Below, in pieces: positions 2,416 to 62,837 of a stretch of DNA of 64,000 nt. The notes under the pieces are model-generated. The model saw only the letters and a list, made by a program, of their open reading frames with translations. It was not told where the DNA came from and searched no databases. Each line of letters begins with the position of its first letter. The stretch's first letter is position 1. A program made the translations under genes and the position numbers. Source of the stretch: Novakomyces olei (Eukaryota); NCBI GenBank assembly GCA_016906335.1, contig JADEYG010000001.1, forward strand, positions 1,550,001 to 1,614,000. Reading direction: 5' to 3'.

Positions 2416-3147
2416 AAGTCTATACCAAATATACGACAATCGCGCACCAGAAAGCCACGCATTGGGATATATGAATAGGCTTAAAGTGGGAAACCTATTG
2501 GTATTCTTTACGACGCCTGTTTTACCAAGCACATGCAATACATACAGCAATGGCATTTTCAGCTTCCGTGCATCCATTGTCGCAGTCATATAGAGTTTGT
2601 CTTTTGCTAGTATAATGGTGGTACAATGATCTTGAGTTTCTGCCTGTCTCACTGCCGCAACAAAGCACAGGCAGAGTCAAGTATAGCGTGCTTAATTAAT
2701 TATTGAACAATTGACAGTTGCAAAAGACTTCCGGCTCAGACCGAATATCCATTCAGTATACGACTATATAGACGCATGTACAACGCATGTACAATACTTG
2801 ACGCTGATTATGACGATTGCTAGCGGCAATGCTGCCGTCCGCCGTTGTCGCGTCCCATTACGATAATCAGTGAGTGTCTTTACGTAAACTAATGCACGCA
2901 AACGCTAATACAATAATTATTTTTATACTGGCAGTAACGCTGGCTGCCTTGCTTACTTGTTTTACTAGGTTATTTTGTATCACAATCCCAATACTTTTCT
3001 TGCCTATTATTAAAACACTCTCGCACCAGATTGCTCTAGGCCACCATTTCCGACGCGTCCCCTTCACCGGCAAAAGGCCAAAGCAGCCCTTCGCGGAGGA
3101 CAGGCGAGCAGCACGGAGGCGGGTCACCTTCAGCCGCTGCGGCTGCT

Positions 3148-6100: not shown

Positions 6101-6567
6101 GCTTGCAGCCACAGACTCCGCCTCCACAATCAAGACGGACTCCTCCAGTCGGAGCTGCTTCTGCTTCTGCTTCTGCTTCTGCTTCTGCTTCTGCTTTGGC
6201 AAATGGACGAGCGAGTCATCGGCAGGTTTGTTCGACAGGAGCGCAGACTGGAGAGCAGACTGAAAAGCACCGTAGCTCCAGCGATGGGCAATTAGGGTAT
6301 ACGGGAAACAGTGTGGGGGTTAGAGCGCCTCGGCCGGCTACGCAGATACTGCCTTCCTCCGTGTCTGCTATCCTATCCGCAACACCTGTTGCTGGCTCAG
6401 CTGTGGTGGTGGATGGCAGCAGTAATAAATCATCGTCAGCGTCTCAACTGCAAAAGCAGCAGCAGCACTTGGAGGACAGGGGGCTAGGGAAGGCTTCTAA
6501 CGCGTCAGACGGACGAATTTCTTACGCGTCTGTAGCCAAAACGGGTCGCGCTGCGTCTGTCGCGTAA
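3148..6567 (+). CDS. Cid1/Cid13/CutA-family non-canonical RNA 3'-terminal nucleotidyltransferase (exons 3148-3639, 3938-4088, 4130-6567; 5' end may extend further)
   Basis: Spliced product contains the pol-beta motif AFGS...SDVD, AKVPIVRIWD, CDMNINN, GGTLTSY and the PAP-associated motif LCVEEPFNTTRNLGN, followed by a long low-complexity C-terminus. Confidence 0.88.
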
Positions 6568-7509
6568 TTGTCGATTTAGTACTGTTTGGGAATTAAAACA
6601 AGGACACTAAAAGGCGTCTTCACGCGTGTGTGTACGATGCGCGTTTATGTGTGAATAAGTATATAATCAAGATTATCTTCAATACAAAGGTTAGCTGTTT
6701 ACGGGATTGCGTAGTCTGTAGACTGGTTTATCTCGTGCTAGCGCACGTTTATGCGTATTTCGCTCTTGTGGCCAGTTTGGGTGATTAGATTTATAGAGCA
6801 AGTTCAACGCCCGAATGTATATATACTTGTTAATGCCCTTTATTAATTTAGCCCATTATTAATTTAGCTCTCTATTAATTTATGCCCTGGTGTTGATGTC
6901 ACATGTACCCATGTTTGGTGGGTGTGCACGCTGCACGTATAGACTGTGTGTATTGTATACACTATTGCTGTTTAGTGCACTCGAACGGACGTGCGAGATT
7001 TAGGCATTAATTTTACTGCGTCAACCTTTTGTTAAATCCATGTTGTAAATCTTTATTTTTACACGCTTATTCCTTCTTTGCCTCACCGTCCTATCCTGCC
7101 TTGTACAAAGCCGTCTTTCCGACGGGTTCATGACATATACTACTACGCGCTATAAAACTCGCCAACTCCCATAAAGGAATGACACCCCGTCCATTCGCGT
7201 CGCTGTACGAATGGGGAAACGCCAAGTATTAAAGTAAACAAAACAGCCAATTGGGATATTTATTCTCGCGTATACGCGAGTGTGCACGCACGAATACGGT
7301 TATACGCGACTCTGCCTCTTCCCAAAATGGAAACATGTTATTAGTTCCTTGGCAGGATGATTGATGTCCGGGTGGTTCCTGCGCCGCGTAGAATGGGAAA
7401 AATGGGCGCTGATATGTATGTATAAATACACACGCGACTGCCTTGTCCGCCCACAGGTAGGGCACGTGTTTTCCGGAGAGCTGCAGTACTCTTGTGAAAA
7501 AAAGGCCAA

Positions 7510-20133: not shown

Positions 20134-21870
20134 GCCTTTTTTTTTTTCTTTAATAGAGCTTTGCGTTTTGCCCAAGTCTGTCTGTCTTATTAGCTGCAAA
20201 GTCACCTTTTTATCATATTTTTTTTTCACTGTCCGTATGCAATTGCGACATATGTGGATCATCCTTCCGGGTCAATAAAAGCGGTTGCCCAACGTACCAA
20301 ACAAGAACATGCTTTTACAATTAACTTATTTTCTATCATGTGAGCGTTCTGCCGTATCATGTGGATACTACGTGACTAGTTTAACATTAAGAACCAAGTA
20401 GAACATGTACAAACATGTACACGACATGTGGGTGTTTTAACAAGCGCGTGCGGATGGAGCGTGTGCACAATAGCTCGGCCGCCTGATACAAATCAAATGA
20501 GCGCCACTGTATAAATATCAATTCAATACACTTTGGTGGAAGCGTTAAACATCTTTGAAATATGACTCAAAACTGCAACACGTCAATTTATCTAGATTTT
20601 TTGGCTAAACACGCCGGCTTTAATTGATGTCTCTGCATGTTTCTCAGCTATATACAATATTATGGTAGGCGATCGCACAGAAAAGCTTCTACCACGTTTC
20701 CCCTTGAAAGAGAACCTTGAAAGAAATACCATACTCTAAAATCGCCATGTTCAGGGTTTTCTCATCATATTTACTGTGTATAGTGCGCGTAGGAAGCGTT
20801 CGTGAGGTATAGTGGCGCACTGCTATCCTGCTACGCTGGCGTCCCAGGGCAGCCGGTTTTTAGTATTGTTTGCCATTGGCAGTAGTGCAAGGAATACAGC
20901 TCGAGAGAGTCTGACTGCATTATAGTTTATGTCTTTGGTTGGATTGCAATCGGGTTCCAAAAATGGCTCAAGTAGCCGACACTTTGAATAATATAGGATG
21001 TATTGCACTACGAATTGCAGTTAAAATTCAATATAAATCCGAGAGTAGTACACGTTTGCAATTGCAATTGCAATCGCAATTGGACCTTGAAAAAAGAAAC
21101 AAAAGCGATTTCCAAAAACCCCAATATTAGGACAGCCATGCAGCCAGTCACGCACAAGCAACTCCACGCTAATCCCAGTATTGGACGGGAAACTCGTTCT
21201 TCCACCACAACAGCCGCCGTGTGATCGGCAAAGTGCTATATATAGACTAATCGCCAAAATACCCAGAAAACAACGAGTAAATAAATAAACCGCCAACTTT
21301 TGGCGTGAAAATAAAAGGTCAAGCAAGCTGCGCCAAAAGATTCTTTTTCAAAGTATAATTAATGTATAGGAAATAATACGCAAGTAAGACAGTCCACAGA
21401 CAATTAATTATTATCTGAGATTAAAGAAGACAAAATCGACGAGACGAGGAGGCAAAAGGACGAAGAGTGTCTTGTACGAGTACATGCAGGGATCCCTTAA
21501 TTTGTCTACGCGTCTGTAAAGTCTCTATTCCCGTATCTCTTTCCATATAGCAATTACGATCTGCTGGATAGGCGTTTGGACTGACTGGGGACTCGTGGAT
21601 CGGTCAGGAGCAGTTACCTTTTGATCAAATTAGCAACGAAAATTAGGGTAAACACGTCCATTGTGGCAGGGCAAGGGGCTTGAAGCAGCAAAGACTCTAA
21701 CTCGCACGTGTACTATTGCTTTAAAGCTGCGCATACTTTTCAGTTCATCGACCCTCTTGATCACCCACCCGTATTTACCATCCTCCGAGTCTGAGCAAAG
21801 TCCCGTCCCGAGAGCATCGGACGCCAAGTCAGCACCCAAAAACGCGCGAGCGCGTCCCACTCTTGACGCG

Positions 21871-24800
21871 ATGGCACGTGCACACTCGCCAACGCGGTCA
21901 CGTGGGGATAGTGGGCTTCACTCTGCCATAGTAGACACTGTCGACCGGGCTGAGGAGGCAGACGAGAGTGATAACCGCAGCATCAGCAGCAATTCGGGCA
22001 CGCTAGAAGATTTACGCGTACACGACTCGGAGGGAGTTGCCTCGTCACCGCTTACAAAGCCAAGTAAAAGCAGTGAGACCAATGGCAACGGGGACTTGAG
22101 CAAGGACGATAGTCCTTTACAGCCTTGTGCAAACGGCACTTATCCGGCCGATTCTAGGGCCGACGGCAAATCTGCAAAACAAAGCACGAAAACGGCAGCA
22201 CTGCGTAACACTAAAGACACGACAAAGTCACGTGCGCCATCGAGACTGACTCCTGGAGCGTATGAGAAGTCACGTGGCCCTTACGCGTCGACTCGCAATG
22301 GGAGCCGTGTTGCGAGTGCCGCCTCGTCGCTTGGCTCGTCTGCTTTTGAAACGCCTCCGCCAGCTGGCCGACGGTCCGGCTCAAAATCCCAAAACAGCCA
22401 TCACAGTAATCATCAGCATCCTCATCATCTTCATCATCTTCATCATCAACAGCAGCATTATACATCAGCCAACAATTCCCATGTTAATACCACTTCTCAG
22501 CACCATCACTCGCGGGCGAGAAACGCTCCGCCGAGTCCATTACTTGTTCAAACACCTTCGTCACTACAGTCACCCGGTCTGGACTTGAAGTACATCAGCT
22601 CTGGTGGGGGTCACCCGCTTTTGCCCACGGGTCTGCTTATGGGAAGCCCTTTCACGCCAGGATCGCCTTCTGCTTTTACTACTCCTTCCTTCCACTCACT
22701 CACTCCTCTCCATACCGCTGGCCACTCGCCGAGTATTGGATTTCTGCCGTTTACTGCTAATTCATCAGCCGCTGCCGCAGCAGCAGCAGCAGCAGCAGCG
22801 GCAGCAGCGGCAGCAGCTTCAGCTGCTCACAACCATCACTATGCGCTTCATCCACTAAGCAATAACAATAACAATAACAATAACAATAACAATAATAATC
22901 ATTCGTTAGGAAACTCGTCTTTTTCTCAGCGACTAGCATCACGCTCTCTCAATTTTCACACAGGCGGAAAGAGTGGGGGTAGCGGGTCAGCAGGCTCTAG
23001 CAAGGAGAAGAGTGCGTCTGGAAATACTACGAGTGCCGATATTCTGCGGTCAGTTTCACGGTCAAGTGGGGGAACAGGCGGAAGCAGTAGCAGCAACAAC
23101 AATAGCGGTTTTAGTAATAATAACAGCAACAGCAATCTAGGCGTGGCCGCCAGTACGGCGGCAACGGATACATCAGCAGCGGGTGAGAACAACGGGATAG
23201 TGAAACCAACGTCTGCCATGAACTCTTCGTCTTTGCTTCCAAGGACGGTTTACCTCGGCAATATGACGGCTAATCTGAGCTGGGAAGAAGTGTTTAATGC
23301 TATTCGCTACGGGCCCATTGAATCGGCCAAGCATTTACCGGAAAAGTCTTGTGTTTTTATTACGTTTGTGGACTCACAGGCAGCGAATGCCTTCTTCCAG
23401 GAGGCCTCAACACGCAAAATCGTGATACAAGGCAACGAGATCAAAATCGGCTGGGGCCGGTCTGCCGGGACAAAGCCTACAGGCCCCGTGCAAAAGGCCA
23501 TGCAGGCGCATAATGCTACCCGCAATGTATACATTGGCGCCCTGCCTGACGATGTAACCCTGGAAAAGTTGCAGCAGGTTATGGGGCAGTATGGCAGTAT
23601 TGACAAGATCAATATCGTCCGGGACAAGAGGATCGCGTTTGTTCATTATACGAGTATTGCAATGGCCGTAAAGGCCGTAGAAGCAATGCACGCTGACCCG
23701 GACTGGTCCGAGTCTTGGGTCAGTTATGGTCGGGATCGATGTGCAAAGCAGCAGCAATCGCAAAACCAGCAGCAGCAGCAAAATCAGCAGCAGCAATCTC
23801 GGAATAAATCGGGACCAGACTCGAGAATTTTTTCGCCAACAAGCGCGCAATCGCCTTTTCCAATCGACCAGTTCTTCCAAGGCGGCAGTCATATGGCTGA
23901 CAATAATAATGCAGCGGCAGCAGCAGCTGCTGCTGCTGCTCAGTTGGCTGCTTTTGCCCGATTTGCCCCGATGTACCAGCAGCAAATCCCGACAAATTCA
24001 CAAATGCTGTACGATTTTTACAGCCGGTTTGACCCGAATGCTACGCACGATAACCGTACCATCTACCTGGGAAATGTTCATCCGGAAACAACGCTGGAAG
24101 AAATCTGTAACGTTGTTCGTGGAGGCATTTTACAGCTGATTCGTTACTTGACAGACCGGCATATTGCTTTTATTACGTTTATTAATCCCTCAGACGCTCT
24201 ATCATTTTACCAGCTGGCGACTGTAAACGGGGTAATGATCCATAATCGCCGACTCAAGGTCGGCTGGGGCAAGAACCCGGGCGCTCTATCTCCGGCACTA
24301 CAGGCTGCAGTAGCTAATGGAGCTACTCGCAATATCTATGTGGGCAATGTGGACGAATCTATCACGGAGGACTGGCTACGTGACCTGTTTTCACAGTTTG
24401 GAGAGATTGAACTCGTCAATACTCTGCGGGAAAAGTCTTGTGCTTTTATTAATTTTACAAATATTGCAAACGCTATAAAGGCCCTCGACGGAGCCAGGTC
24501 GCTGGAGGAATGTGCTGCTCTAAAGATAAATTACGGTAAAGACCGGTGCGGCAATCCTCCACGCGTTCCCCTGCAGAGTAATCCTGCAGCAATGAGCAGC
24601 AATAATAATAATAATAATTTTAATCCTAATGGTACAAGTGGCATTACTGCCTCGCCTTTACTGCACGGGCACATGAGTAATAGTCCTGCTGGCGGATCGG
24701 GCGGAGGTGGACCTGTCGAGTTTGCTCCACAGGGTATTCCCTATCAGCATTACATGGGATTTCCGCCTTTTATACCCACGACTCTAGTGGACCCGGTTAC

Positions 24801-26039: not shown

Positions 26040-26663
26040 ATGCCGGTGAGGCTGGAACGTATCCCGCTGGGCGTCATCCTTACCCGTAAAGTCCCTTTTG
26101 ACTCTCCAGTTTGAGCTTTTAACATGTCATTTTACGTTTATTTTTGGCTAATAATGAGCTAATTTAAATCTCTATTTGCTGTCTGGTTCTTTACCCTCCT
26201 CCAGATTCGTTGTTACCAAGGGTTTTGCTAACGACTAGCGGCAATGACAACATGGGTGCCATTCTATATCGGCTACTACAGCTTTCTGCAGCTTCGTGTA
26301 ATCAATGCACGCGTTGAAACGGGCAAGCAAGTAGAAATTGCCGACAAGGAGGCCGACATATCGGACCCGCTATACGTCAGCGTTCATTCGGCCGCCGAGT
26401 TTGCCAGCAATGTCCCTACTGGGCTTTTATTGGCCGCACTGGCTGAGCTTAATGGTGCACGGCCCGGAGTGCTGCACGCGCTCTTGGGATCTTTTTTCGC
26501 TTTGCGTGTAGCCCACGTTGAGCTTGGGACAGAGAGCACTTCCAAGAGCAAAGCCGGTATTAAATTTGGACAGTACGGGACGATTGTCTGGCTCGCGGGT
26601 GTTGGCGCATACGTCTTTTACCTTGGCTGGCCAGTCACCCGAATTTGGGCGCGTTTGAACTGA
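26040..26663 (+). CDS. MAPEG-family membrane protein (exons 26040-26085, 26239-26663)
   Basis: Hydrophobic helices; LAALAELNG and LRVAHVELG. Intron GTAAAG...GCTAACGACTAG keeps the frame. Confidence 0.75.
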
Positions 26664-26939
26664 CTGATTGATTGAGAGATCAATGCCGAAATTCAGATAT
26701 CAAAATCTTGTTACTGGCAATTTTTACGCGCGCATTTGGATCTATTATCGTTGCAAAGAAAACGCGTTTGACAGGCGTTTGACAGGTGTTTGGTTTGTGG
26801 GGTGCAGGTTTACTAATATATACATAATACCGCATGCAATGCTTGTAGAAATAATTAATTACAATGTAAACCATAAATTACAGGGTTAGGGTTATCATGT
26901 TTGAATAATTCGACAGTGAGCAACGCGTAAACAAACACG

Positions 26940-27773
26940 ATGCCTCGCAAGCTTAAACGGCCACGTGGCAAGCAAAGCACGCAAGCGGCAGCTCAGTCTA
27001 GTACAAATGCAGACACTCGCAGTGCGACTCCAGAATTTTCTACGCCCAAGTCCCGCGCGGACCAGTTGCGTAGAGATTCGCAGGCAGAAGGGCAGAGTAC
27101 CCGATCAGCGAGGCTAAACAGCCTTTCCCCCATCCCGGCGCAGACCAGTGAGCCAAGCTGTGAACAAAATTCCGCCATAGAAGCAGCGTCAGACAGCAGT
27201 GACGGGTTTGGGTTCAGCCGTGTGAGAAACAAGCACTTTCAGACCATCACAGATCATCAGAAGGGCAAAGAGCCAAAACTGACAGAGCCAAAACTGCCAG
27301 AGCCAAAACTGCCAGAACTTCCGTCTTCGCCAATGCTTCCAGAGTTGGGGGATACTATGGCTGCTTCATTCTCGTCTTCGCCTTTGTCATCTGTGCCCTC
27401 ATCGGAGGTTGACGAGTATTCATACACGGCTGGCGAGGGAGAAGCACAGTACAATGTACCTACAAGGGAGCTGGAAAAGATGCTGCCTCATAGTATAATA
27501 CACACGAGGCAAAAAGCAAAGAAACAACGCAAACGGCGTGAGCCAAAAGAGGCCCTGTATGGGGAAGACGCAAAAAGTCTGGACGGACGGCGGCACCGTG
27601 AAGGGTTGCAACAGGAAACTGAGCGATCGGACGATGAGGGATACGATGACGAGTATAAAATGAGGGAACGAGCGAGAATTGATAAAGTGAAAGCCTACTT
27701 TAAGCAGGTTGACGTCTGGCCGCTGGACGAGGAGGATGTTTACGTGCCGCCATCTTCAACTTCCGCTGCTTGA
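26940..27773 (+). CDS. Sororin-like cohesin regulator (Sor1-like)
   Basis: Disordered basic N-terminus, FGF motif (27207-27215), PTRELEKMLP, a basic patch, and C-terminal KVKAYFKQVDVWPLDEEDV resembling the Sororin C-terminal domain. Confidence 0.72.
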   Translation: MPRKLKRPRGKQSTQAAAQSSTNADTRSATPEFSTPKSRADQLRRDSQAEGQSTRSARLNSLSPIPAQTSEPSCEQNSAIEAASDSSDGFGFSRVRNKHFQTITDHQKGKEPKLTEPKLPEPKLPELPSSPMLPELGDTMAASFSSSPLSSVPSSEVDEYSYTAGEGEAQYNVPTRELEKMLPHSIIHTRQKAKKQRKRREPKEALYGEDAKSLDGRRHREGLQQETERSDDEGYDDEYKMRERARIDKVKAYFKQVDVWPLDEEDVYVPPSSTSAA

Positions 27774-28197
27774 CGCAAAAATGTAATTAAATGGCGTGTT
27801 TTCCGTGTTTTCTTTTAAATAGGTACTGTATATAGCACTCGTAATGCACAGTGGAAATTTTTGTTTTTACAAAAGTTTAGGCGCACAGCACGCTATGCTC
27901 GAATTGACAATGCCGTCTTTAACGGTCCGGAATACGGGGGACGGGCTCTTTCTGCTCGCGCATAGTGCGAATTATTCTGAATTAAATTAACTCGATAAAT
28001 ATAGACTTTGCTAATTGCTAGTAAGCTTATAGTATTATTTTTATATAATTTAATATCATTTAATATCCTTCTGTGTAGTATAATAAAAACCCTAACACGT
28101 ATTAAGGTACGCGACTTGACGCGACAATAGACGCGCGACGACGTAGTATAAACAGGTTGCGACTCTGCTTTACGCCTGCAAGTTGCTGCAATAAAAT

Positions 28198-31100
28198 ATG
28201 GGGTCGGCAGCGACACGTCGGTCGTCGCGGGGCACGAAAAATAAACCATTTACCAAAAAAGCGGACTCAAAACCGTCCGAAATTGATGAAGAACGGACGA
28301 CAAAGACAAACCAAATCAAAGTACAATCAGAGCCTTCGATCCTCTGCTCGAACAAACCCATAGTTCCTAGCACGGGGAACTCGATTAAAACCGTGGATCT
28401 GCTTGAGGTTTTATCTGTGAGTATAGCAAAAAAAGAAATGAAAAAAAAAACAAAGAAAAGAAAACAAAAATAACAAAAAAACAGAAACCAAATCTTAAAC
28501 GTACTAGTCTAATCCGCTACAGAAACTGCATGACGAACTTCGAGACCATGACCAGGACACGGACGATCGGTCGTTTATTACCAAGAGAGCAGCTCAACTT
28601 GTCCATCCCAATTTGATGCAGCACAAGGACAAAGGCGTACGGGCGTACGTGAGCTGCTGTCTGGCCGATATTCTACGCATATGTGCTCCAGACGCGCCGT
28701 ACAATGAGAGCCAATTAAAGGAAATTATGCGCTTTTTCGTCCGGCAGCTTCAAGCCTTGCAAGACCAGGACAGCTCATACTACTCGCTGGCGTTTTACTT
28801 ACTCGAGTCTCTTGATACAGTTCGCTCAATCGTCCTTGTGTGCGATCTGACTGGGGCGGAGAGCATAATCGTCGATTTTTTTAGAACCTTTTTCGACGTT
28901 ACAATACACAATAAAACCAAGCAGGTTCAGTTCCTGATGGCCGATGCCATGCAACAGCTGATTGAGGAGGCACCAAACGTGCCGCCGGCCATACTTGACT
29001 CTTTGCTCTCGCAACTGCTGGTGTCTTCAAAACCTGCTCTGTCTTCGTCCACAAATCGACCGCAAGTACGAGTCTACCAGGATGAAGCAAGTGCAAATGC
29101 GTCTCAGTTTTTCCGCCCGCCTGGCCAGCAAGTAGCACACCAGGTCCTCTGCCGATGTGCCGATTATTTGCAGCGGTACATTTGCCAGTATTTCGCAAAC
29201 GTTATAATTGAGGCCACTTCTCTGGACGACGATCATCCACAGGACTCTCGTACCGTGCTGGACGAAGATGCAGCCCTACGAGCTCATCGACTCGTGGTAG
29301 AGCTTTGGAAGTGTGCTCCTTCAACACTATTGAATATTGTGCCTCAGCTGGAGAGCGAGCTTGGCCAGGAAAATGCACGGCTTCGATCTATTGCTACAGA
29401 AACGATTGGAATAATAATGAGCACGGCTCACCATAACGATTTATCGGCAGAATATCCATCCGCATTTCGAGCTTGGCTGTCCCGCGCCAATGATCGATCG
29501 CCCATGGTTAGACTCGCTTGGCTTGCTTGTATAGCAGACGTCGTTTCAGCCAATGAACAACGTGCTTCTACTGTGGATGATTGCATTTCGAGTTTAGCAC
29601 AAAGATTCCTTGATCCTGATGACGCTGTGCGGACCAGTGCTGTATGCACTGTACACTCTTTGCCCTATAATACAGTTGTGAGTCGAGTACCAGTCGAAAT
29701 TATTCGCGAAGTATCGGAACGGTGCAAGGATAGAAAGCACAAAGTTAGGGAGAATGCATTTAAGTGTCTGGGCAAAATTTATAATAATTTTTACTCTTCA
29801 ATAGCATCGTCTGGCTCTACTGCTACCTCTGAAAGTATAGAAAAATTTGAATGGATACCCAACGGCATATTGCGAGCCGCCTATGCTGATGATCGAGATA
29901 TTGACGCGCTCATTGAGCGAACTGTATACGATGATTTGCTCGACAGACAAGAAGTCGATGACGATAAGCGTGTGAGGCGGCTATTATGCGTATTCAAGAG
30001 CCTTGAGACGCGTGTACAAAAGGTTTTTTCCGGACTGCTTACCCGCCAGAATACGATGTCTAAACTGCTCAAAATGTACATTGCTCACGTTGCCAGCCCT
30101 GAGGTAAGCTAAGCATTAAATAATAACTTATTAACATATTTCAGGAAAAGAAACGTGAATTTAGCGAGCAGGCAGAGCTTGTTGTATCGAATATTGCCTC
30201 GCAATTACCGAATTCTACAAGGGCAAAAGAGGATTTGGAACAGTTTGCAAACCTCAGGGATCAGCGATTGTGCAAGTACTTGAGTGACGTGACCGCGCCC
30301 AGCTCTGAAGCTTCCGTAGTCATTAAATCGGCCGTAAGTAGGCAATAGCCAATTTTGATTTATTTATTTATTTACCATTTATTTCATTTTCATGTCTAAC
30401 AGGAGCAAAATAGATCGAGTTTGTAAAAAGACTGGAAACAAAGCCCTCCTCATTAGCTTCCACCTTCAAATGCATCGTGTATAAGAGCTCATTGTTTGTT
30501 TGTAACAAAACAAATCTCTGTAAGCTGCTCGAGCTTTTGCTACCCGGCGCAGACGGAATCGGGCCCGACGGTAATAAAGCGGCCAGCGAGCTATTTGAAA
30601 ATATTGCAGCCATTCAGCGGCCCGTTTTCCAGTATGTCCTGCCTCGAGTCATTTCTGTCGTTTCAGAGGCAGGCCGGACTGTGCCTGATGCTGTAATAGC
30701 ATCGATTGCTGCATTTGTACACCATAGTCGAGAGAAGATCGTTGCCCCGAAAGAGTTTCTGCACGCAATCAAAGAGATTATCCTGATCTATTCCGCATCA
30801 GACGCAATGGCAGCAAATGCAGCAGTAATTGCCTGTCATTTAGAAACTGTGGGCCCCTACAAACAAGAGATTTTACAAGAATTAGTGGAAAACATGGAGT
30901 ACGATGACGACCGGTTTTGCGCTAAATTAGCGGCAATTTCTCAGTTTGCGCTTCATGATCCTGTGGATTTTGAACATTTTTCTGATACGGTAGTAACGTT
31001 TGTGATTAAACAGATTCTTTTGAATGTGCGTCCTGGCGAAACGGAGGAGTCACACTCTTCTACCGTTCTTGAGGACACAGAAACCGTTTGGAGAAGCGCC

Positions 31101-32396
31101 GACAAGTCTACTACTGCTCGAACTGAGGCGATCAAAGTGCTATGCAATCGTCTGGAGGCTAACAGGGAAGCTGAAACATCGACTGAGATTGCCGAGCCCG
31201 TAGTGAAAATGCTGGAGACTATAATTCAGCGTCAGGGAGAACTGGGAAAGTCTGCCCGACCTGCGCCGTATATTGCTTCGCGACTTCGACTTGATGCGGG
31301 TCTTTCCCTGCTGAAATTGGCCAGGTTTCGCAAGTTTGAACGCTTAATCAGCCCAGTGCTTTTTGACTCACTCTCTCTGTTAGCTCAAGATCCAGTATTG
31401 CAGGTGCGCACACGCTTCTTGAGCGAGCTGCGTGGCCTCTTGCAGTCAAAGCAATTGCCTCTACATTGTATTGCTATTGCTTTCCTTAGTGCTCACGAGC
31501 CAAATGAAGCTCTGCGCGCGGAAACGAGCAAATGGCTGAAGTCAATGGCCGCCCTTCATCGTCGGGACAATTCGTATGCAGCGGAACAAAGCCTGCCTGT
31601 CTTTATCTCGCTCCTTGCTCACCATCCTGACTTTGGCGAGGACGTAGACGACTGCAAAATGTATTTGCAATACTTCAAGTATTTTATAGAGTCGGCCGTC
31701 ACTCCGGATACTGTATCGCTCGTTTTTCATCTTGTACAAAGACTTAAACAGGTCAAGGACGCTGTGCTTCCCGACAGATCAGACAGATTATACTTTTTAT
31801 CTGATCTATGCCAGTTTTATATTCAGACATACGCAAGCCAAAATGATTGGCCGCTTCAGGCATACCCCAAAAGCTTACGCTTACCCAAATCCCGCTTCGT
31901 CGCACTGAGCTCTCGGACAGAGGCGGTTGAAGTACGTAAAGTTGATTTTTTTTTATTTTTTTTTGTTCTCACAAGTCTGATTTCTTCAAGTTTGATGCAT
32001 TCTATTTTGTCATGAATCTTTGTAGTGCTAACTGTGTCTAGCTGTCGCGAAAGAAGTTTCTTTCCCCACAAATTGAAGATGAGCTGCAGCAATGCATATC
32101 TAAATCAGAAAGGGTACTGAGATTTGCTTAGAAAATTTGTTAATATTTCCTCTTCTAACCAGGCGCAGGGTATTCTGACAGAAACGACAAATGTCACGAA
32201 AAAGAGCCGAGCGTTAAAGCAAAGCAGCAAGACAAGGAAGCCCAGTGTTAAACGCAAAAGGACCTCAAACACAGATCCGAATCAACGGCGGAAAAGTGAC
32301 CGTATAACCCGCGTCAGTGCAAGGAAGCCTGTTTCATACAGAGAAAACTCAAATTCTGAGTCAGAAGGCGAATCGGGTTCTGATATATCTGACTAG
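28198..32396 (+). CDS. PDS5: Cohesin-associated HEAT protein Pds5 (introns 28417-28522, 30104-30144, 30334-30413, about 31932-32041, 32114-32162)
   Basis: HKDKGVRAYVSCCLADILRICAPDAPY, YLLESL..VRSIVL, DPDDAVR, RLRLDAG, LLAHHPDF and a basic C-terminal tail. Confidence 0.95.
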
Positions 32397-33014
32397 TGGC
32401 ACCGCAAAGAGCACAGGAAATTCGTTTAACATATTGCTTTGAACCAATTCGAGCGCGAGGGCGGTGGACGTTTTCGAGAATTTAATGTATACTATTTGTA
32501 CATATCAGTGTATCTTATCTTCCATATCATTTAATTAATTCTGTTTTACGAGCTATGAATCCAAAATTAAAGCCTTAAATTTGAATGTTTTTATCAAGAC
32601 AACAGAATATTCAAAAAATAAAGCAGTAAATCTTTTGTTGAACACGCGGACAGCCTTGCAAACGTGATTGAGGCAGCTCAATTGAGAGTCTGACATTAAT
32701 TGAGTTGAATTTAATTATAATTATTGTCACAAAATTGAAATAAAATACGATATTTTTATTTAATAAATAATGAATTTTTAGATACAATGATGTATACAAA
32801 AATATAAATTATATTATTTTATATTATTTTACGGATTCAATTTATTTGACCAAGACAACTAATAAAATAATATAAATAATATAAACGATATGAAGTTACA
32901 TAATCTATCATTTCACTTTTAGATATTAAATTATATTATTATTGTAGTATTATATTATTCAAATAGCCAATATCACGAAAGCCCAACGACAATGATGACA
33001 GCATTGGCGGCGAG

Positions 33015-36000
33015 ATGATCGATTCTTCTCGCCAAGCAGTATTTGATCGAGTAAGTGTTAGGAATTACAATTTGTTTTGCTAAATTATTTGAGTTAAAAC
33101 CATGCTGCTTGGAACTGGCGAGGCACAGCATGGTCAGTGCTATTGGCACTGATCAACGCAGCTTACAAGCATCTTTACGAGCAACACGGTCGCAGCTCGA
33201 TGACATCACTCGCGATAGCACAGCAAGCTATGGCCCAGCTTTGGCAGAGTACGTGTTTTATCCGATCAGTTTCCTCCTCCGACAGAGAAACTCTCTGTCT
33301 GACGAAACGCTATGCTTAACCCTAACATGTATTGAACAGCTCATTGCAAGAGCCTGGTCTCACCGACTATCAGCTGAGCTGTTTCAGCAGCTGCTAATAT
33401 TACTGACATCTCTTGTAGAGGGCAGTAAGGCTAAAGCCTCAGGGTTTAGGGTTAAACATCATTCTGTACAATGTTTAATGCAGCTCTTTCGAGCTGCTGG
33501 CAGCCAAACTGACACGGAGTTCCGTCACTTGGCTGTTTATGGCAAAGCCAAATTGGCGCTGGCGCATTGTGTAAGTGTTCTACTGGATTATGCAGTTCAG
33601 CGCGACCAGGACGTTATGGATAAGTGTACAGCGCTGGACGCTCTCACTGTACTCCTCCAGGGAGTCGGATCGGACGCCGACTTGGTCGCGAGTTTCCTGC
33701 CGGGTATTGTCTCTATTATTTGCAAGGGGCTGCAAAAGGATGGAGGACTGAGACGGCATCATTTAGTAACAGAAAAGTCGCTCGCACTACTCGTCTGTGC
33801 TATTACTGCTGCATGTTCAGACAGGGCAGTATCAAGTTTGCAGAGTGAGAGCAAAAAAGAAGAGGAAAAAACAGAAACAGAAACAGAAACATCAAAAGGC
33901 AAGTTGGACACAAGTTTGCCGTACGACTTTACGCGTACGGCAAGCTGGTTAGAAGGCACCAAAACCCAAATAAAATTGGCACTTGACACAATTGCTTCTA
34001 TCCGGGCAGCAGACCAAATGACCGTGCGGCTGGCCATGCTCAATCTTTCGCTCAATCTTTTCCTTGAATGCTCCAAAATGCTGGACAGCTGTATCGATTA
34101 TTTTACACAAACCCTAATTTTGCTGTCGGTGGACGAGTACGCGCAAGTGCGGTCAGCGGCGGTGGAAGGATTACGGCGGCTGTCTGAGCCACGTACAAGT
34201 CCAATACTGGTCGAGTCACTTTTGCACTTGCTTGACTTGTGCGTGCTCCGGTTTGAACGTACACTGGAGTCTGGACGCGAACAAGAAATCAACCTTTTCT
34301 TTGTTTTGCTAACAGAGACGATTCGCCAGTATTACACTATTGCGTCTCCGTCTGCTGATCTGCCTCAGAGACAAGAGCTTTTGACGAAGGCTTTGCTGTA
34401 TGCACAGGTTGCCACCGATCCCGTAGAAAAGGCTGCCGCCAGTGCGTCCAGGAATTTAGTTTCGTCTGTATCCTCGTCTTCCGATATGAGCCATCTCATC
34501 GCAAACAATAACCGTCTGACCCTGCAAGAGCCACAATTAAAATACTTTAAAACTCCGCAGACGCGGCAGAGCTTCAAGGCTTTCGTTCAGCTTCTTGTAC
34601 GCCCACAGGACCATACAAGAATCGCTTCACTTTTCGATCAGACGCTGGAAGCAGCTCAGGACAGTGGTAAGAGCACGTTACCCGGCAATTCTTCTACGAC
34701 TACGACGATGTTGATTGCCAACACGGCGCTCGCTGAATTACAAAACGAAAACGCAAATTTTGGGACACTGCTCCTGCTGGACAAGACCTATTGGACAGCC
34801 AAACATCTGATAATAAACACAGTAGATATCGAGGCAATGGACGGCTCAGCCGCCAGTCTCTGTATGGTTGCAATTGCCCAGTACGCTCAGCACTATGGCC
34901 AGCAGTTTGATACTGAGCTGATTGATGTCTTGTTCCCCTTGCTGGATCTGTTTGGCAGCCGTTCAGGATCAGTTCAGCAAAATGCCGCCTGGACTCTGGT
35001 GCAGCTCGCTGCTGCCTGCAGTTATGCAAATGTACCAGCAATGCTAGCCGCCAACATGGACTACTGCGTGAACGCAGTAGCACTGCGATTGAACACTTTT
35101 AGTATTACTCCGAGTGGGCCAATGACGCTCGTCGTTCTTGTTCGTCTGCTCGGACAGGCGGCAGTTGTTTATATGAAGGATGTTATTGAGAGCATTTTTA
35201 CTGCTCTCGATACATTTCAGACGTACCCGAAACTCGTTGCGATGCTGTTTGAAGTGCTCAAAGTCGTTGTAGAAGGTGTGGGCGTGGGTGAGGGTTATGG
35301 AGGGGACAAACTGCCACACAAGAGGGCACTGCTCTTACAGCGTGCGGAAAGGGATTCCGTGCCGTCCATAATTGAACGGGTAAAGGCGTCAATGCGAAAG
35401 AGGCAGAGGGCCGATCCTTTGCCAGCACCTGAACAAGCTGTGCCTCCATTGCAGTCGGAAGGCGAAAAGAGTTGTGGTGGTGAAGAAGAAGAAGAAGAAG
35501 GCAAGATCGAGACGGAGCAAGAACGAGAGCCGAGACTCGAACCCGAGCTGGAAATTGTCTGCTCCGTAATGCGTAAATCACAAATGTTTTTAACGCACGG
35601 AAACCGGAACGTTCAGCGAGCGATTCTGCACCTTTTGGCTCGGGCTCAGCTATTACTAGCAGCACAGGAGGATACTATACTGCCCTTGATAAACGACCTG
35701 TGGCCTCTTGTACTTAATAAACTGGATGATGGCGATCCTGAAGTCTTTGAGGCCGCTGCCCAAACGATTGCTGGCATGTGCGAAGCTGCTGGAGACTTTA
35801 TGAGCACTCGAATTGCGAATGAGGGCTGGCCTCGTCTGAAAAAGGTTTTTTCAACAAGCAATGCAGATAGCAAAAGACTGGGCAGGAAGGAGGCAGTTAA
35901 TGCTGTTGCACACAGGAAGCAGCCGCTGCCTTATTCTTCTGAAGCGAAAAGGCAGGCGGCTGTTTACCGGTGCTTGTCCCGTATTTGCGAATGCGTAACG

Positions 36001-36165
36001 CTCCCGTTACGCACGCAAGACGACATTTTGGACACAGTGGCGAGCGGGCTTCGACGCGGGAAAAGAAATGCGGTTCAAACGGAGTTTTTACAGTCCCTGA
36101 GGCTGATGAATTCGGATGGTGTATGGCTTGAAATTGATAGGTACGTGGAGGATAGACATGTATGA
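33015..36165 (+). CDS. TTI1: TEL2-interacting protein 1 (TTT complex; exons 33015-33050, 33094-36165)
   Basis: Spliced N-terminus MIDSSRQAVFDR|LKPCCLEL; LAEYVFYP, LVASFLPGIVS, RTASWL, NMDY, LPLINDLWP, GDFMSTR, NSDGVWL. Confidence 0.9.
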
Positions 36166-41021: not shown

Positions 41022-41349
41022 TTAAGGCTGATCTTCATGAGGCGAGTTTGTATCATCTAAATCCTGTTGTGCGCCCCGATCGTGTCCCGCATCCTCACCA
41101 AGAACGCGACTGGCTCCCATAAAGCTTGAATGATTAGTGGCTGTAAGAATAAAATTATGATAACGCGTACAGACCAGCCTGCAGTCCGCCTAGAACTCGC
41201 GTTGCTTCTGCCTGAATACTAGCGGTATGCAACAGATTTTCGAGGTCCGATAAATTTGCTTGCAATTGTGCAATTTGCGAATGAAGATGAGACGCATAAC
41301 GGGCTTTCACTTGGGCCGGTGCCGTTGAGGGACGCCGACCGTGTTCCAT
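41022..41349 (-). CDS. HSK3: DASH/Dam1 complex subunit Hsk3 (exons 41349-41171, 41124-41022)
   Basis: KARYASHLHSQIAQLQANLSDLENLL..ASIQAE...LG...GL|FMGASRVL. Intron GTACGC...CTAAT...AAG keeps the frame. Confidence 0.88.
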
Positions 41350-41628: not shown

Positions 41629-41721
41629 CGCGAGCTTAATTGTATCAATTGCCCTATATTAAAGGCAGATGATAATCGACATTATGCCAGTACCGTCACT
41701 GTAGCAATTGACAAATGAAGG

Positions 41722-44290
41722 ATGGCGGATGCGCTTACACTCGATCACGATGCGTCTGTTGAGCCAGACGACGATGGACAAAGAAGTGCAACCAAAGATG
41801 CTGATGAAGTTTCGATGAATGGATTGGACGAAGGAGGAGGCGATGGTGATGAGAAAGACAAATCGCCAGCAAAGAAGCCCAAGATTGAGTTGGTCTCCAA
41901 CAATGTCTTTACACGGTTCAATTTGGCCTCGCAGTTGAATCAGAAAAACTATTATACTGAATATATGAAGAAGGATGATCAGGTAAGTGGCAATTTCATA
42001 ATGAAATAGTATGCTAACTGTGGTGAAGAACACGATCCTGCGAAATATCGATCGCGAAGTGCGTATGCGCAACGAGTCAATCAAAACCGCTTCTAAAGAG
42101 AAGGAAGCTGCCAAGCAGGCTCGTGTACAAGTCCAAAATGCCACGGCCAATGCAAACAATACTACTGCCTCAACGAATGCAAAGAAAAAGGATGAAAATG
42201 AGGAAGAAGAAGAAGAAGAGGACGAGGATAAAATTGAAAGTGAAAAAATCGGTGCTCGAGCACTGATAATACATCTTGGCTCAAAAAATCTGCGTGTTGG
42301 CAAAGCACTTGATTTCACACCGAAAACAATACCCGCTGTAATAGCACGAAGGTCACGGGAAACGGATCCTTTACTATTACCTGCGAGGGTTAAACCCGAC
42401 GCAAAACCTGGCCCGGGCGTGTTTGGTGAAGCTTTTGAAGAAAATCTTCAAGTCTTGGATGAAGAGCTTAAACGACGAATGCGGGCGAGTAAAATGAGAA
42501 TGATGCCAAACGCCTTTGAGGCAGTTCAGCAATATAATTTGCAGCAAAGGCCAGAGCTGATATCCGAGCACGATGACCCTGACCACGTCGATTGGACAGA
42601 TTTAGGTCAGTCTTCGTCCGGCCCGCAACAGGAGATTATTGGACAAGGCGCTTTAGCCATACCAGCGGACTCCCGGCCTCATTATTCGCTTTTCCGCCCT
42701 CTTAAAGACGGGCGGCTAAATGAGGATGACTATAATTCACCGGTTGAAGTACTGGGAGACATTTCCAAAATCTTGAAACACGCTTTAATCCACGAACTGG
42801 GAATTGCCTCAAGAGACTTTGCTCAGTACTCTGCCGTCTTTATAATCCCCGACTTGTTTGATAAAGCACAGATACTCAGCCTGATTGAAACCCTGTTTTA
42901 CGACATTGGACTCTTGAGACTCACACTGCTACAGGAATCCTTTTGCGCTACTTTTGGCGCTGGCATTAGCTCGGCCGTTGTGGTCGATGTTGGAGCCCAG
43001 AAAACCTCGATTTCCTGTGTGGAAGAAGGTATTGTCCTGCCTGATTCAAGGATTAATCTGAAATACGGTGGTGACGATGTCACCTGGCTCCTGTCAAAAC
43101 TGCTACTTCGTTCAGGGCTACCTTACCCTACCCTCAACTTGGCAAACGGGTACGAGGCAGCAGTAATGGACGATTTGAAACAGCGTCTTTGCTCAACTAG
43201 TGAAAGCGATTGCGTAGTACGGCTGGAGCACGTGTACTTTAGGCATCCAGAACGTAAAACCCAAAAGCTCGAGTTTAAAGTATATGACGAGCATATCCTG
43301 TCAGCGATGGCCTACTTTTACCCTCAGGTATTTGAAAGGTGGACAAAACAGCGACGGCCGCACAGGCTTTTTACTCCAACACGAGACATCTACGAGTATA
43401 CTCTAAACAATCCTGAATCGGCTGCTCAAAATGTGCTTCTTGATGCCACTACGTCAGAGTATGAAACGTCGGCAAACACAACGACACACTTGGCGATAGC
43501 AAACGGCAAATCTGCCAATGGTGAACAGAGAGAACACGAAAAAGGCGAACAAATTTTGGACAATAATACAGCAAACGCTGATATGGAAATGCCCGATGCG
43601 GAAGAGGCAAGAGCTGGTTCGGAAGAGCAATTAGAGGAGGAAGAAGAAAGTATAGTCGATGAGCCAAGCAAACCCAATTTCAGCCAGAGTGCTACACCTC
43701 AAATTGCAGGCGGAGAAGAGGCCGGTTCGCCTCCGCAAGATAGCAATGAAGACAGTACAGCAACGCCAGCAATGAAAAAGGCTTCTGAGGCCAGAAGGCA
43801 GACTATTGCCGCTAGAAATGCTGCAGCAGCCGCGGCAGCAGCGGCAGAAGCAGCGGCAGCTGTTAGTGCTGCTGAAGAAGAAGAGCGTCTGAAGGAAAAA
43901 GAGGTTGGTCCTTTGCTGCATCCTCTCCTGTGGCCATTAGACGATGCAATTAATCAAAGTATTTATACTGCCGCAGAAGGTGATTTGACTAGCGACAGGG
44001 CAAGGGCACTGTACCAGTCAATCTTGATTGTTGGTGGAGGAGCAAATTATAAGGGATTTGCTTCATTGTTGGAAGAACGATTGCGTGAAAAACGTGCGGG
44101 CATAGCACATATTGAAGTTATAGTAGCCCCACGTAGTATGGATCCACAGCAGCTTTGCTGGAAGGGAGCAGGCGTGTTTTCGCGTATTCGCGTTGCCGAC
44201 GAGTTTTGGATCGAGCGCAGCGAATGGGACACGTTTGGCAGCAGAGCTATGCAGTACAAAAATCTAGGTCTTTTCTGGGATTTAGTCTAG
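41722..44290 (+). CDS. ARP8: INO80 complex actin-related protein Arp8 (intron 41983-42028)
   Basis: NQKNYYTEYMKKDDQ, IIHLGSKNLRVG, QESFCATFGAG, VVDVGAQKTSISCVEEG, YGGDDVT, MDPQQLCWKG. Confidence 0.95.
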
Positions 44291-48309: not shown

Positions 48310-51300
48310 ATGAACAGATCGACGTCACTACGGGTAAGTTGACTGTACCAAACACGATCTAACTATTGCAGTCCGCCCACGGCCACGGGTACAGCGGCTC
48401 TGACCGTTCCGCTTCTGCCAGAGGCAATTACAGTACAGGGTTTTCTGCGACAGGTCTGGGCCAGGCGGACTCGCGTGCTTCACTGGCAGCGGCGGCGGCC
48501 GCTACTGCTCTTTCCCGATCAAACTCAGCTGCCAGTCTGCGTGCGTCTGAGGCTGATTCACGTCGGTACTCTCTCGGCGGCACTTCAATGCGCCGGAGCT
48601 CGAGCGTGCTCGGCCACCACGGCTCTCTGCCGAGACCAGCGAGCTCTCTGCCCCGATCGACTTCTGCTATGGCTCATATAAGCAGTGGCAGTGGCAATGG
48701 CAGTGGCAATGGCAATGGCAATAGCAGTGTAGGCGCCTTGGCTGCTCCACAACGGCGCGGAACTGCCGCCTCTGGTGCCGCCTCCCTTGCGGCTCTGCAG
48801 CAAAAACGAGGGCCTGGCCAGTCTATGGGTTCTGTTGGCTCTATTGGCTCTAGCCGTCGGCCTGAATCTGCAGGAGGGTTTAGAGCGCCTACTGCCCCAG
48901 CTAGAACTGCTGTTCTACGCACGAGTCGTTCCAGTCGCACTCCGAAAACTATAGGCAATTACTCTGTTGGAGGCAATTATTCTACTGGAGGCAATTACTC
49001 TACGCCTGCGGAAATACGTGTCGACCCTCCTCGGTCACGGTCACGGACCCCGTCTATCAGATCTTTCCGCTCAGAGCTGGAAAGCATCTCCGAGTCGGCA
49101 AATGCTCCACTGCCAAGTATTAAATCGGCAATGAAGGGAGGAGGCTCTGGAGGAGGCTCTGGAGGAGGCTCTGTAGCGGGTTCGACTCCGGGAGCTGCTG
49201 GCCCAGCTCCTCTTGGCCGCGGAGCACAAAAGCTCGGGTCTGTACCAGCCTCACCTACTCCGCCCAGCGTTGTCTCTGAGACAGAATCTGCCTCTGCAGG
49301 CAGAGCCGTGGACCCGCGCCGCAAGACGCGTGTCAGTTTCTCTGACAGTGCAGGCGAAACTCCACCATCACTCGATCCTACAGTGCCGGTAGACACTGTC
49401 AGGAGTAACAGTGCAAATCCTGTTAAAATGACAGGAGAAAATGGGTACGAAGCAGGTACTGAAACTGGTGGAGCAGGTACTGAATTCAGCCATACTCTGG
49501 CAGAACAGCAAGAGCAGCAAACGCTTATCGCCAACGGACTGGCCCGGCAGCCCGGCCAGGCTACGACAGAGGAGGCAGTAACCAAGAATAATGGGCCAGA
49601 GAGCCTGGCTGAGACCGGGCAAGGCGGCCAAGGAAACGAGAGCCAAGCAGCGGAAGCGTCTTTAGCGAGTTCAGTCTCCTCCCGAGGCTCTGTTTATTCC
49701 GATGCAGAAGAGGCCTTTGCCGGCTCAAGAAGGACAGACAATTTGAGGACAGACAATTTGACGGCAAATGTGCCAGCCGTCAAGGCCAGTACAGCAGTGG
49801 AAAACAGGGTTTCAGGCAATACTCTGCTCGAAAAACCGCAGAAATCTGCTGCTCAGTCCGGCTCAGTTACGAGTCCCGCCTCGACGGGTCCTCGCAAGCT
49901 CACACGTGACGAGATTATCAATCGAGCCCGTTTAGCTGCTCAGTCAAGCCAGTCAAGAAGCAACAAGCGTCTGTCCAACGTGGGTATGGGAGACGTTGGC
50001 ACTGCACTGCCAAACAGGCCAGGGTCAAGGTCGGCTTCCAGGTCAGCTGCCCGACCAGACTCGAGGCCTGGCCAGGCCGCTGAGATTCAGCAGCTCGAGG
50101 AAGCAGCTCGTGCCCGGGCTCTTCAGCAGTTGGGTGGAGGCAGTTTAGGCAGAGGCAGTTTAGGCGGAGGCATTTTATCTGGACCGGCTGCCTCGTACGA
50201 CAACGACAGCGATTCTGATTCAAGTTTTCGGCAGAGAAGAAGGCAAAGGCAGTCGGCTGCCTCGTCAACTCCCGCTGGAGCCTCTCAGTTCCGAGTGTCG
50301 ATGAGGAGGAACAATGGTCCTCAAGATCAGCAGCAACAGACTCCATCATTTCGCAGAAACTCGATTACGTCACTGTCCTCTGGCCCAGGCCGGTCTCCGA
50401 GCGTGAGAAGGATGCGGCTCTCTATGCGGGCCGAGCAGTCACCGGCCCCGGCTGTTCCCGCCATCCCCGCCGACTACCGTGCCGGGTCCTTGACGCGTAG
50501 CGTTTCGCGTAGCAGTTTTACGCGTACTACTCTACGAGGCAATAATAATAACATAAATGATCAAGGTACTCCGGGCAAGGTGTCTGTGTTTTCCCGGCTG
50601 TCTCTACGGCCCAGCAGGGGCAATCTAAAGCAGCAGGCCGGCAGGGACAGGGATTTCGATCTCGACCAGGAGGACTACCGTCCCTCACCGAGACAGCAGT
50701 CACGTGAACGCTCAGGGCTGGCTCGATTGTCGATGCGTGAGCCTGCTGCCGGCAGTGGAAAGAGCCGGCCTGCTAAATCAAAATTTCAGAATAATATTAT
50801 TAATAATAATAATATTAATAATAATATTAATAATATTAATAATAATAATAATAATATTAATAATAATAATAGCAGTATGAGAAACAGGTTATCGCAAAGC
50901 GCTGGAGTCGGCCAGAGCCGTCGGCTGGCAGATTCTGATTCGGAGATTGACGTGCTTGATGCAATGGCAGAAGGCCCTCCACCTGGTCCGGCTTCGACCC
51001 GTCGACGAGGCTTTTTCAACAGTCTACGCAAGAGCCGCCGGCAGTCTGCAGACGACGGAGGCCGCACTTTTTCTCTGAGCAATTCTACTCCCCGGTCGGG
51101 TCCTACTCTACGTGGAGGCGGAGGTGGACTGGCGGCCGCTGGTACACATGGCCTGACTGCCACAGCGCCCCCAGAGTACTCGGCAACAGAAGAGCACTTG
51201 TACCTGCCACAGGAGCCTCCGCGAGGACAGGATGCAAACGAGCAGGAAAGGCTTATGAGCGTATCGAGACGCACGGGCAAAGTTAAAAAGTTTCAGAAAC

Positions 51301-51329
51301 TGAGACGGCTGTTTGGAATACGTGACTAG
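48310..51329 (+). CDS. Large Ser/Arg/Gly-rich disordered protein, probably Seg1/Sle1-like eisosome scaffold (intron 48334-48371)
   Basis: Exon 1 MNRSTSLR spliced in frame; AAAAATAL near the N-terminus, RKTRVSFS, and a basic amphipathic C-terminus KVKKFQKLRRLFG. Confidence 0.55.
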
Positions 51330-62801: not shown

Positions 62802-62837
62802 TTTGAACCAAACAGACAAAGATGGGGGGAGACAATG

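Follow-up and report, generated by a model that had tools for sequence, protein, structure and literature searches.

A candidate Sororin-like gene upstream of PDS5 in the fungus Novakomyces olei

The PDS5 locus

The analysis covered a stretch of 64,000 nucleotides of Novakomyces olei DNA (GenBank assembly GCA_016906335.1, contig JADEYG010000001.1, positions 1,550,001 to 1,614,000 of the forward strand), which is called the window below; positions are counted from its first letter. At 26940–32396 the window carries a short single-exon open reading frame (ORF) followed on the same strand by the PDS5 gene. The ORF, a candidate for a Sororin-type cohesion-protection factor, is the subject of this report. 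The features of this part of the window are as follows:

26940–27773, + strand: Sororin-like gene, a single-exon ORF of 277 amino acids (aa), rich in S, E, P, R, A and K and predicted to be disordered
27207–27215, + strand: FGF motif F90-G91-F92 within SDGFGFSR (residues 87–94), read from the sequence
27269–27316, + strand: 15-bp tandem repeat, 3.2 copies with 96% matches, encoding (E)PKL(P/T) repeats at residues ~111–126
27504–27539, + strand: cluster of lysine and arginine (K/R), TRQKAKKQRKRR, residues 189–200, 8 of 12 being K or R
27642–27707, + strand: sole predicted helix, residues 235–256 (22 residues, about six turns), running into the box (single-sequence AlphaFold 2 model, DSSP)
27699–27734, + strand: core of the putative Sororin box, FKQVDVWPLDEE, residues 254–265, with F254, V257, D258, W260, L262 and E265
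27774–28197, + strand: spacer of 424 bp between the Sororin-like ORF and PDS5, with an AT-rich stretch
28198–32396, + strand: PDS5, six exons, ~1271 aa, splice sites read from the sequence

The ORF starts at the first ATG, 9 bases past an in-frame stop, and ends with the stop codon at 27771–27773. Its product combines GFGF with a C-terminal YFKQVDVWPLDEE; residues 253–267 read YFKQVDVWPLDEEDV, and at its C-terminus the protein reads ...KAYFKQVDVWPLDEEDVYVPPSSTSAA. The sequence-only reading of this stretch had reported a disordered 277-aa ORF with SDGFGFSR and this C-terminal sequence, lying 424 bp before the PDS5 ATG on the same strand, and every one of these details was confirmed. The 15-bp tandem repeat is located just C-terminal to the FGF region.

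In our model the exons of PDS5 span 28198–28419, 28523–30103, 30145–30333, 30414–31931, 32042–32113 and 32163–32396. Exon 2 matched the Pfam family PF20168 with an E-value of 6e-150 (profile positions 40–484) and exon 4 with 1.4e-95 (positions 690–1052), and judged by these matches the identity of PDS5 is certain. A database search with exon 2 gave 131 proteins at E≤1e-10. The nearest relatives were only 39–41% identical and belonged to Pneumocystis species, an unnamed assembly-derived protein, Lipomyces, Basidiobolus and Saitoella. Judged from this single protein, the fungus would probably be an ascomycete that branched off early, and one for which no close relative has been sequenced and annotated. 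The product of exon 1 opens with ~40 residues of basic, low-complexity sequence (MGSAATRRSSRGTKNKPFTKKADSKPSEIDEERTTKTNQ...) ahead of the point where the PDS5 consensus starts. A fused Sororin-PDS5 gene was considered and dropped, since a stop codon closes the ORF directly behind the C-terminal box and the usual beginning of PDS5 is encoded in exon 1.

Coding evidence for the 277-codon ORF

Codon usage was scored with a log-odds model trained on nine confident coding stretches from the window, with eight held-out genes as a control. The ORF scored +0.18 bits per codon in its own frame as against -0.10 to -0.48 in the five other frames; the held-out genes (n=8) scored 0.14–0.29 bits per codon in the same model. 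By simple arithmetic on ~6000 stop-to-stop segments in six frames, an open frame of 280 codons is expected by chance ~0.009 times per 64 kb. On the opposite strand the longest ORF over the same interval is 61 aa. The G+C content (GC) of the three codon positions is 0.585/0.484/0.513 in the ORF, 0.581/0.393/0.471 in PDS5 exon 2 and 0.579/0.415/0.493 in TTI1, the gene downstream of PDS5. Thus the first position of the ORF agrees with those of both genes, and its second position is higher.

It could be argued that the ORF is no gene at all, merely a chance open frame in the region upstream of PDS5, given that it has no homologue and that its composition is of low complexity. The rarity of an open frame of this length, a gene-like codon score confined to a single frame and the agreement in first-position GC with PDS5 exon 2 and TTI1 all argue against this, and we regard it as extremely improbable. 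Judged by its coding signal, the ORF is very probably a real, unannotated gene.

Sororin-type architecture of the protein

The closest published model for the predicted protein is Sor1 of Schizosaccharomyces pombe, for which mutation of any of the residues F299, V302, D303 and Y305 abolishes function (Prusen Mota et al. 2024, Nat Commun, PMC11148194; statements on this and the other cited papers refer to the parts of their text available to us). Residues F254, V257, D258 and W260 of the ORF have exactly the same spacing; three of the four are identical and the last is W for Y. They form the pattern F-x-x-V-D-x-W-x-L, with F254 at 23 residues from the C-terminus of the 277-residue chain. An AlphaFold 2 model folded from the single sequence, with no alignment and hence of modest confidence, had a mean predicted local distance difference test score (pLDDT) of 52.8 and was coil except for the helix at 235–256, within which residues 241–250 reached a mean pLDDT of 76. 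In an eLife paper (PMC10656103) Sororin boxes are described as a short helix of six turns.

Members of the Sor1 family were delimited by a match at the C-terminus, a hydrophobic/aromatic pattern, no overlap with a known domain and a K/R stretch ahead of the match; in the case of Sor1 there was also an FGF motif (PMC11148194). In the ORF we found a C-terminal box, a helix running into it, a K/R stretch and an FGF motif; no Pfam domain is present anywhere in the protein, so none overlaps the box. The span from the K/R cluster to the box, residues 189–265, resembles residues 241–310 of Sor1, the region that the authors covered with their hidden Markov model (HMM). A K/R stretch precedes the Sororin domain in known Sororins, and the linker to the box quoted for metazoans is 10–20 residues; in the ORF this linker is longer.

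The ORF was also aligned manually to the animal box consensus [W/F/Y]xxxPhiNxxFxE[A/Phi][E/D]x[F/Y]ELxPhiE (PMC10656103), where Phi is a hydrophobic residue, by placing F254 on the consensus F. Six of the 12 specified positions matched exactly (V250, F254, V257, D258, L262 and E265) and two conservatively (Q256 for E and W260 for F/Y). An alternative reading of the segment IDKVKAYF as a PCNA-interacting protein (PIP) box was rejected, as a Q is missing from it and the Sororin box has more explanatory power.

Frequency of the motif combination by chance

The box pattern was taken from the published mutagenesis and was not fitted to the ORF; the counts that follow were obtained without a positive control on known fungal Sororins. 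The 277-aa protein was subjected to 1,000,000 composition-preserving shuffles, and the box was counted when it fell within the last 35 residues. FGF appeared in 0.48% of the shuffles, the relaxed box pattern in 72 (0.0072%) and the stricter F..VD.[FYW] in 55, and the box and FGF never occurred together (0 of 1,000,000).

A background scan was performed in six frames on 896,749 bp of fungal metagenome loci for boxes at most 25–30 residues from a stop codon with at least 40–60 open codons before them. The strict pattern was found four times, three of these being copies of one sequence. The relaxed box at the C-terminus was found eight times, and none of the eight had a K/R cluster or an acidic tail. 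Within the 64-kb window the relaxed pattern had a single match, which is the Sororin-like ORF itself.

These numbers bear on the possibility that the ORF encodes a real but unrelated lineage-specific disordered protein, in which FGF, the K/R cluster and F-x-x-V-D-x-W are chance look-alikes. It is difficult to reconcile with the origin of the pattern in published mutagenesis, with a box that occupies the correct terminus of the chain, follows a K/R cluster and coincides with the end of the sole predicted helix, with the zero joint frequency in the shuffles, or with the fact that only eight background matches, none of them Sororin-like, occur in 897 kb of fungal DNA. It would account, on the other hand, for the blank outcome of all sequence and profile searches (see below). 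The box is only ~12 residues long, with four of 12 consensus positions failing, and short linear motifs do recur by chance in disordered proteins. In addition, the ORF was examined because it adjoins PDS5, so that some look-elsewhere effect remains. Taken together, we consider an unrelated protein rather unlikely, though it deserves to be taken seriously.

Homology searches and the identity of the ORF

A number of observations weigh against the identification of the ORF as Sororin, the first group being the searches. In Pfam no family, Sororin included, was matched by the whole 277-aa protein at E≤1 or by four fragments of it at E≤10. HMMER found no match to the ORF among 1.84 billion representatives, and a word-indexed collection of 5.8 billion proteins gave none for the whole protein (near lengths) or for residues 231–277 (E≤10). 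The PDB sequences contained no relative; a DPY30-domain protein matched there with an E-value of 0.21 and was taken as noise. The ESM Atlas, searched with the whole protein and with its C-terminal part, yielded nothing, the best value being 0.87 for unnamed Ascomycota clusters. No orthologue from a relative emerged that could show the motifs to be conserved.

The second group concerns the motifs. Four of the 12 positions of the animal consensus fail, namely the first aromatic (position of human W233), N, E16 and Phi19. The residues flanking FGF do not fit the vertebrate consensus [S/T]-Phi-FGFExL (PMC10656103). Neither a YSR motif nor a KEN box is present in the 277 residues. The FGF motif itself is not universal among fungal Sororins or beyond them: according to the available text it is absent from Arabidopsis Sororin (PMC11148194) and from Sordaria Sororin (PMC12758814). 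Finally, a better Sororin candidate could exist elsewhere in the genome.

Some of these observations lose force when the published proteins are considered. YSR and KEN are also missing from yeast and plant Sororins (PMC11148194) and for that reason are no defining features of the wider family. S. pombe Sor1 has no Pfam domain and was reached at E ~1 with a dedicated HMM and manual filtering; it has no BLAST-detectable orthologue beyond its genus, and the S. pombe and S. japonicus proteins are 23% identical (PMC11148194). As PDS5 of this fungus is only ~40% identical to its nearest relatives and Sor1 is 23% identical within one genus, blank searches are to be expected even for a true Sororin.

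The sequence-only reading had proposed a search with a Sororin profile and had held that the lack of a match refutes the identity. There is indeed no match in Pfam, even at E≤10. We judge the second statement too strict, because Sor1 itself, with no Pfam domain and E ~1 in the HMM of its own authors, fails the same test. The Sororin identity proposed in that reading is partly supported, through the motif architecture, which is that of fungal Sor1; no sequence or profile homology was found.

We infer homology to Sororin from what was directly observed, namely the ORF, its coding signal, the motifs and their spacing, the predicted helix and the identity of PDS5. On this basis the ORF is probably, if not securely, an orthologue of the Sororin/Sor1-type cohesion-protection factors in a fungus without a close sequenced relative. 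Fungal Sororin-like proteins are already in print (PMC11148194, PMC10656103, PMC12758814), and the ORF is at most another member of the family.

Fungal and plant Sororins were recognised only in 2022–2024, through a motif of ~15 residues, owing to their fast evolution. Every further independent protein built in this way makes it clearer where the constraint lies, namely on F-x-x-V-D-x-aromatic-x-L following a helix and a basic stretch. Should the identity be confirmed, the range of the family would be widened to a lineage in which PDS5 shares at most 41% identity with database proteins. The gain for annotation would be one likely cohesin regulator, which automated pipelines would miss or call hypothetical.

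Predicted contacts of the protein

The APDAP loop is present in PDS5 exon 2 (...LRICAPDAPY). In an alignment of 30 PDS5 sequences P56, A58 and P59 do not vary at all, and A55 and D57 hardly vary. The statement of the sequence-only reading that this Pds5 keeps the loop is thus correct and at the same time uninformative, as the motif is (nearly) invariant across the aligned sequences.

The same reading had Sororin bind Pds5 through FGF and noted the APDAP loop beside it; this mechanism calls for correction. In published work the APDAP loop is a binding site for YSR-type motifs and, among fungi, for the TYxxxR[T/S]-Phi-L motif of Wapl. For FGF the predicted docking place is WEST, a trough that lies opposite, at the C-terminal end of Pds5, or else the cleft of Wapl itself. 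In human cells the recruitment of Sororin by Pds5 needs YSR and not FGF, and the ORF has no YSR. In AlphaFold predictions for animals, plants and Aspergillus the Sororin box covers the junction at which the Smc3 neck meets the N-terminal domain of Scc1, a position from which it would oppose gate opening driven by Wapl (PMC10656103).

By analogy, residues 235–265 of the ORF are likely to act at this junction. The C-terminal helix and box would hold the Smc3 neck and the Scc1/Rad21 N-terminal domain together, and Wapl would thereby be kept from opening the exit gate of cohesin. As in known Sororins, the K/R cluster is located shortly before the box. The FGF motif, which belongs to the disordered half of the chain towards the N-terminus, might provide a second, weaker contact, either with the C-terminal WEST trough of Pds5 or with the cleft of Wapl. 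Every binding step in this scheme is borrowed from the literature on other organisms.

Putative cell-cycle sites upstream of the two genes

Other cohesin genes are regulated at G1/S. The core ACGCG of the MluI cell-cycle box (MCB, ACGCGT) occurs upstream of both genes:

26664–26939, + strand: region upstream of the Sororin-like ORF, with ACGCG at 26726 and ACGCGT at 26762–26767 and 26923–26928
28109, 28119 and 28131, + strand: ACGCG sites in the 424-bp spacer, within 27 bp and 63–89 bp before the PDS5 ATG

The three MCB-core sites in the 276 bp before the ATG of the ORF compare with 0.47 expected from the window-wide density (Poisson P ~0.0125), and the three in the spacer with 0.73 expected (P ~0.038). 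The hexamer ACGCGT is enriched in the window as a whole: 26 copies were counted as against 14.0 ± 3.8 in shuffled sequences, and none of 100 shuffles reached 26. Clusters of at least three MCB-core sites number eight in the window, which suggests from sequence that MBF-type regulation may be widespread in this organism. Further clusters were observed at 6500–6640, 7145–7432, 21842–21892, 41104–41198 and 50493–50520; the densest, with five and seven sites, lie between an ORF for a Cid1-type poly(A) polymerase and a GH72 glucanosyltransferase gene. The three sites at 50493–50520 are internal to an ORF of 988 aa (48363–51326).

Control of a cohesin gene by MBF is documented for MCD1 of budding yeast. 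In the present case the ACGCG(T) sites may be MBF sites or promoter elements, as their sequence suggests, and the signal is modest. As each of the two genes has its own upstream region with an ACGCG(T) cluster, co-expression at G1/S, if there is any, would stem from a common transcription factor and not from adjacency.

Significance of the position beside PDS5

The sequence-only reading had proposed that Sororin and PDS5 are a linked pair and that their synteny should be looked for in other fungi. Metagenome contigs were scanned with the PDS5 alignment, and 80 fungal PDS5 loci were obtained, 53 of them with at least 2 kb upstream. At 90% nucleotide identity the 80 loci fell into 31 clusters, of which 21 had at least 2 kb upstream. 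All are distant from this organism (28–48% PDS5 identity) and dominated by one clade, so that the results speak for distant fungi only. By the box pattern used above, which had no positive control on known fungal Sororins, a box-bearing ORF was found beside PDS5 in none of the 80 loci (0 of 21 distinct loci with at least 2 kb upstream). Searching these loci by tblastn with the ORF, the adjacent MAPEG protein, TTI1 and the RRM (RNA-recognition motif) protein encoded upstream gave no significant match, the best E-value being 0.16 (MAPEG).

The 21 representative loci contained 122 upstream ORFs of at least 120 aa, 47 of which were run through Pfam; ORFs overlapping PDS5 and part of the mutually overlapping frames were omitted. 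The upstream neighbour of PDS5 was a divergently oriented gene for a NatA auxiliary subunit at 17 loci, arginase at two, a platelet-activating factor (PAF)-acetylhydrolase-like protein at one and DNA polymerase B at one. The NatA neighbours match Pfam PF12569, NAA15/Nat1-like, within the 3 kb ahead of each PDS5 match (L006, L008, L016, L027, L031, L034, L038, L040, L042, L047, L050, L065, L066, L068, L071, L075 and L078). This looks like a conserved head-to-head NAA15-PDS5 arrangement in one large fungal clade, and it is absent from the window.

In S. pombe the genes sor1 (SPAC9E9.05) and pds5 (SPAC110.02) carry different cosmid names. The proposed synteny was therefore not borne out: the pairing is absent from the 21 distinct, distant metagenomic loci, and the S. 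pombe genes are, by name, on different cosmids. We found no printed report of a Sororin-PDS5 gene pair, a search that did not extend to the taxon list in the supplementary figure of PMC11148194; the words 'adjacent' and 'synten' do not occur in the main text of that paper.

That the ORF precedes PDS5 by 424 bp is most likely a matter of coincidence in the order of genes. The spacer 27774–28197 has to accommodate the 3′ end of the preceding gene along with the promoter of PDS5; a tandem arrangement with 424 bp between genes is usual in this compact genome and does not imply a shared promoter.

The alternative is that the two genes form a selected, co-regulated cohesion-protection pair, the linkage being retained on account of the joint action of Sororin and Pds5. 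Granted that the ORF is Sororin, two given genes would be immediate neighbours in only ~2 of ~6000 cases (an estimate with an assumed gene number), and here they lie on the same strand, 424 bp apart, each with three MCB-core sites upstream where 0.47 and 0.73 are expected. Such clusters are nothing special in a window that has eight of them, tandem genes share no promoter, and among many scanned genomes one such coincidence is expected somewhere. The pairing was seen at none of the 21 distinct fungal loci, tblastn of the ORF, MAPEG and TTI1 was without a significant match there, and the cosmid names of S. pombe sor1 and pds5 differ. We therefore consider a selected pair improbable.

More specifically, an unsampled fungal lineage of early divergence might have retained Sororin and PDS5 in tandem as a G1/S module driven by MCB sites, which we regard as highly improbable. 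If it were true, the position upstream of PDS5 could reveal the otherwise undetectable Sororin genes of related fungi, and the locus would be a rare instance in which selection keeps a eukaryotic regulator linked to the protein it binds. The adjacency would gain importance only by being found again in relatives and is for now anecdotal.

Other genes of the window

The genes flanking the pair are:

26244–26663: MAPEG-family gene, upstream of the Sororin-like ORF
33130–36165: TTI1, downstream of PDS5

The rest of the window encodes, among others, the Cid1-type poly(A) polymerase, the GH72 glucanosyltransferase, an RSE1/CPSF-A-type protein, a sugar transporter, acyl-CoA oxidase, eIF5, signal recognition particle (SRP) receptor beta, an eIF2-alpha kinase, a subtilase, a DEAD-box helicase, NifU/Isu and C1-tetrahydrofolate (C1-THF) synthase. 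No further cohesin gene was found in the 64 kb, and Smc3, Scc1 and Wapl are not among the genes of the window. The proteins of the window are not in the databases. Other ORFs without a Pfam family at E≤1e-5 are 48363–51326 (+ strand, 988 aa, mentioned above), 41662–42447 (- strand, 262 aa), 62190–63071 (- strand, 294 aa) and 3040–3801 (+ strand, 254 aa).

Three DNA sequencing runs contain this stretch, one of which may be its source. Two low-depth DNA sequencing runs of a second study contain positions 26200–33000 of the window, and the contig pieces compared from them show no differences, the two genes included. The same or a near-clonal organism is thus present in another data set. The contigs of the likely source run amount to ~18 million letters, which hints at a small genome.

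Comparison with known Sororins and Wapl

Of the known proteins, S. pombe Sor1 (PMC11148194) is likewise short, disordered and of nuclear type (313 aa vs 277 aa). Both proteins have a putative FGF motif, a K/R stretch, a C-terminal Sororin domain and a long span from the K/R stretch to the box; both are devoid of a KEN box and a Pfam domain, and neither has a detectable homologue outside a narrow clade. There is no measurable similarity between the two sequences, which were likened through the published residue positions and not by direct alignment; the position of Y305 in Sor1 is taken by W260 in the ORF. The binding of Sor1 to Pds5 and Psm3 has been demonstrated; for the product of the ORF such binding is a prediction by analogy.

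Vertebrate Sororin (CDCA5) and insect Dalmatian resemble the ORF in having a C-terminal box after a basic stretch, a mostly unstructured chain and FGF. The ORF differs from them in lacking YSR and KEN, in the flanks of FGF, in the greater length of the linker from the basic stretch to the box and in the mismatch at the first aromatic position.

The Sororins of Pezizomycotina, in Sordaria macrospora (PMC12758814) and Aspergillus fumigatus (PMC10656103), are like the ORF in being known by the C-terminal box only; the comparison is with their published descriptions. The box of the A. fumigatus protein is predicted by AlphaFold to bind Smc3 together with the N-terminal domain of Scc1 (PMC10656103). 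The S. macrospora protein differs from the ORF in that it is described as having no FGF motif.

The N-terminal F-x-F motifs of ascomycete Wapl ([F/W]xFLD) are short aromatic motifs in a disordered region, as is GFGF of the ORF. They are predicted to dock in the C-terminal WEST trough of Pds5 (PMC10656103), and by analogy this site could also receive GFGF. At its C-terminus Wapl carries a domain that is large and conserved, whereas the ORF, with no Pfam match, has none and carries instead a Sororin-type box at its end.

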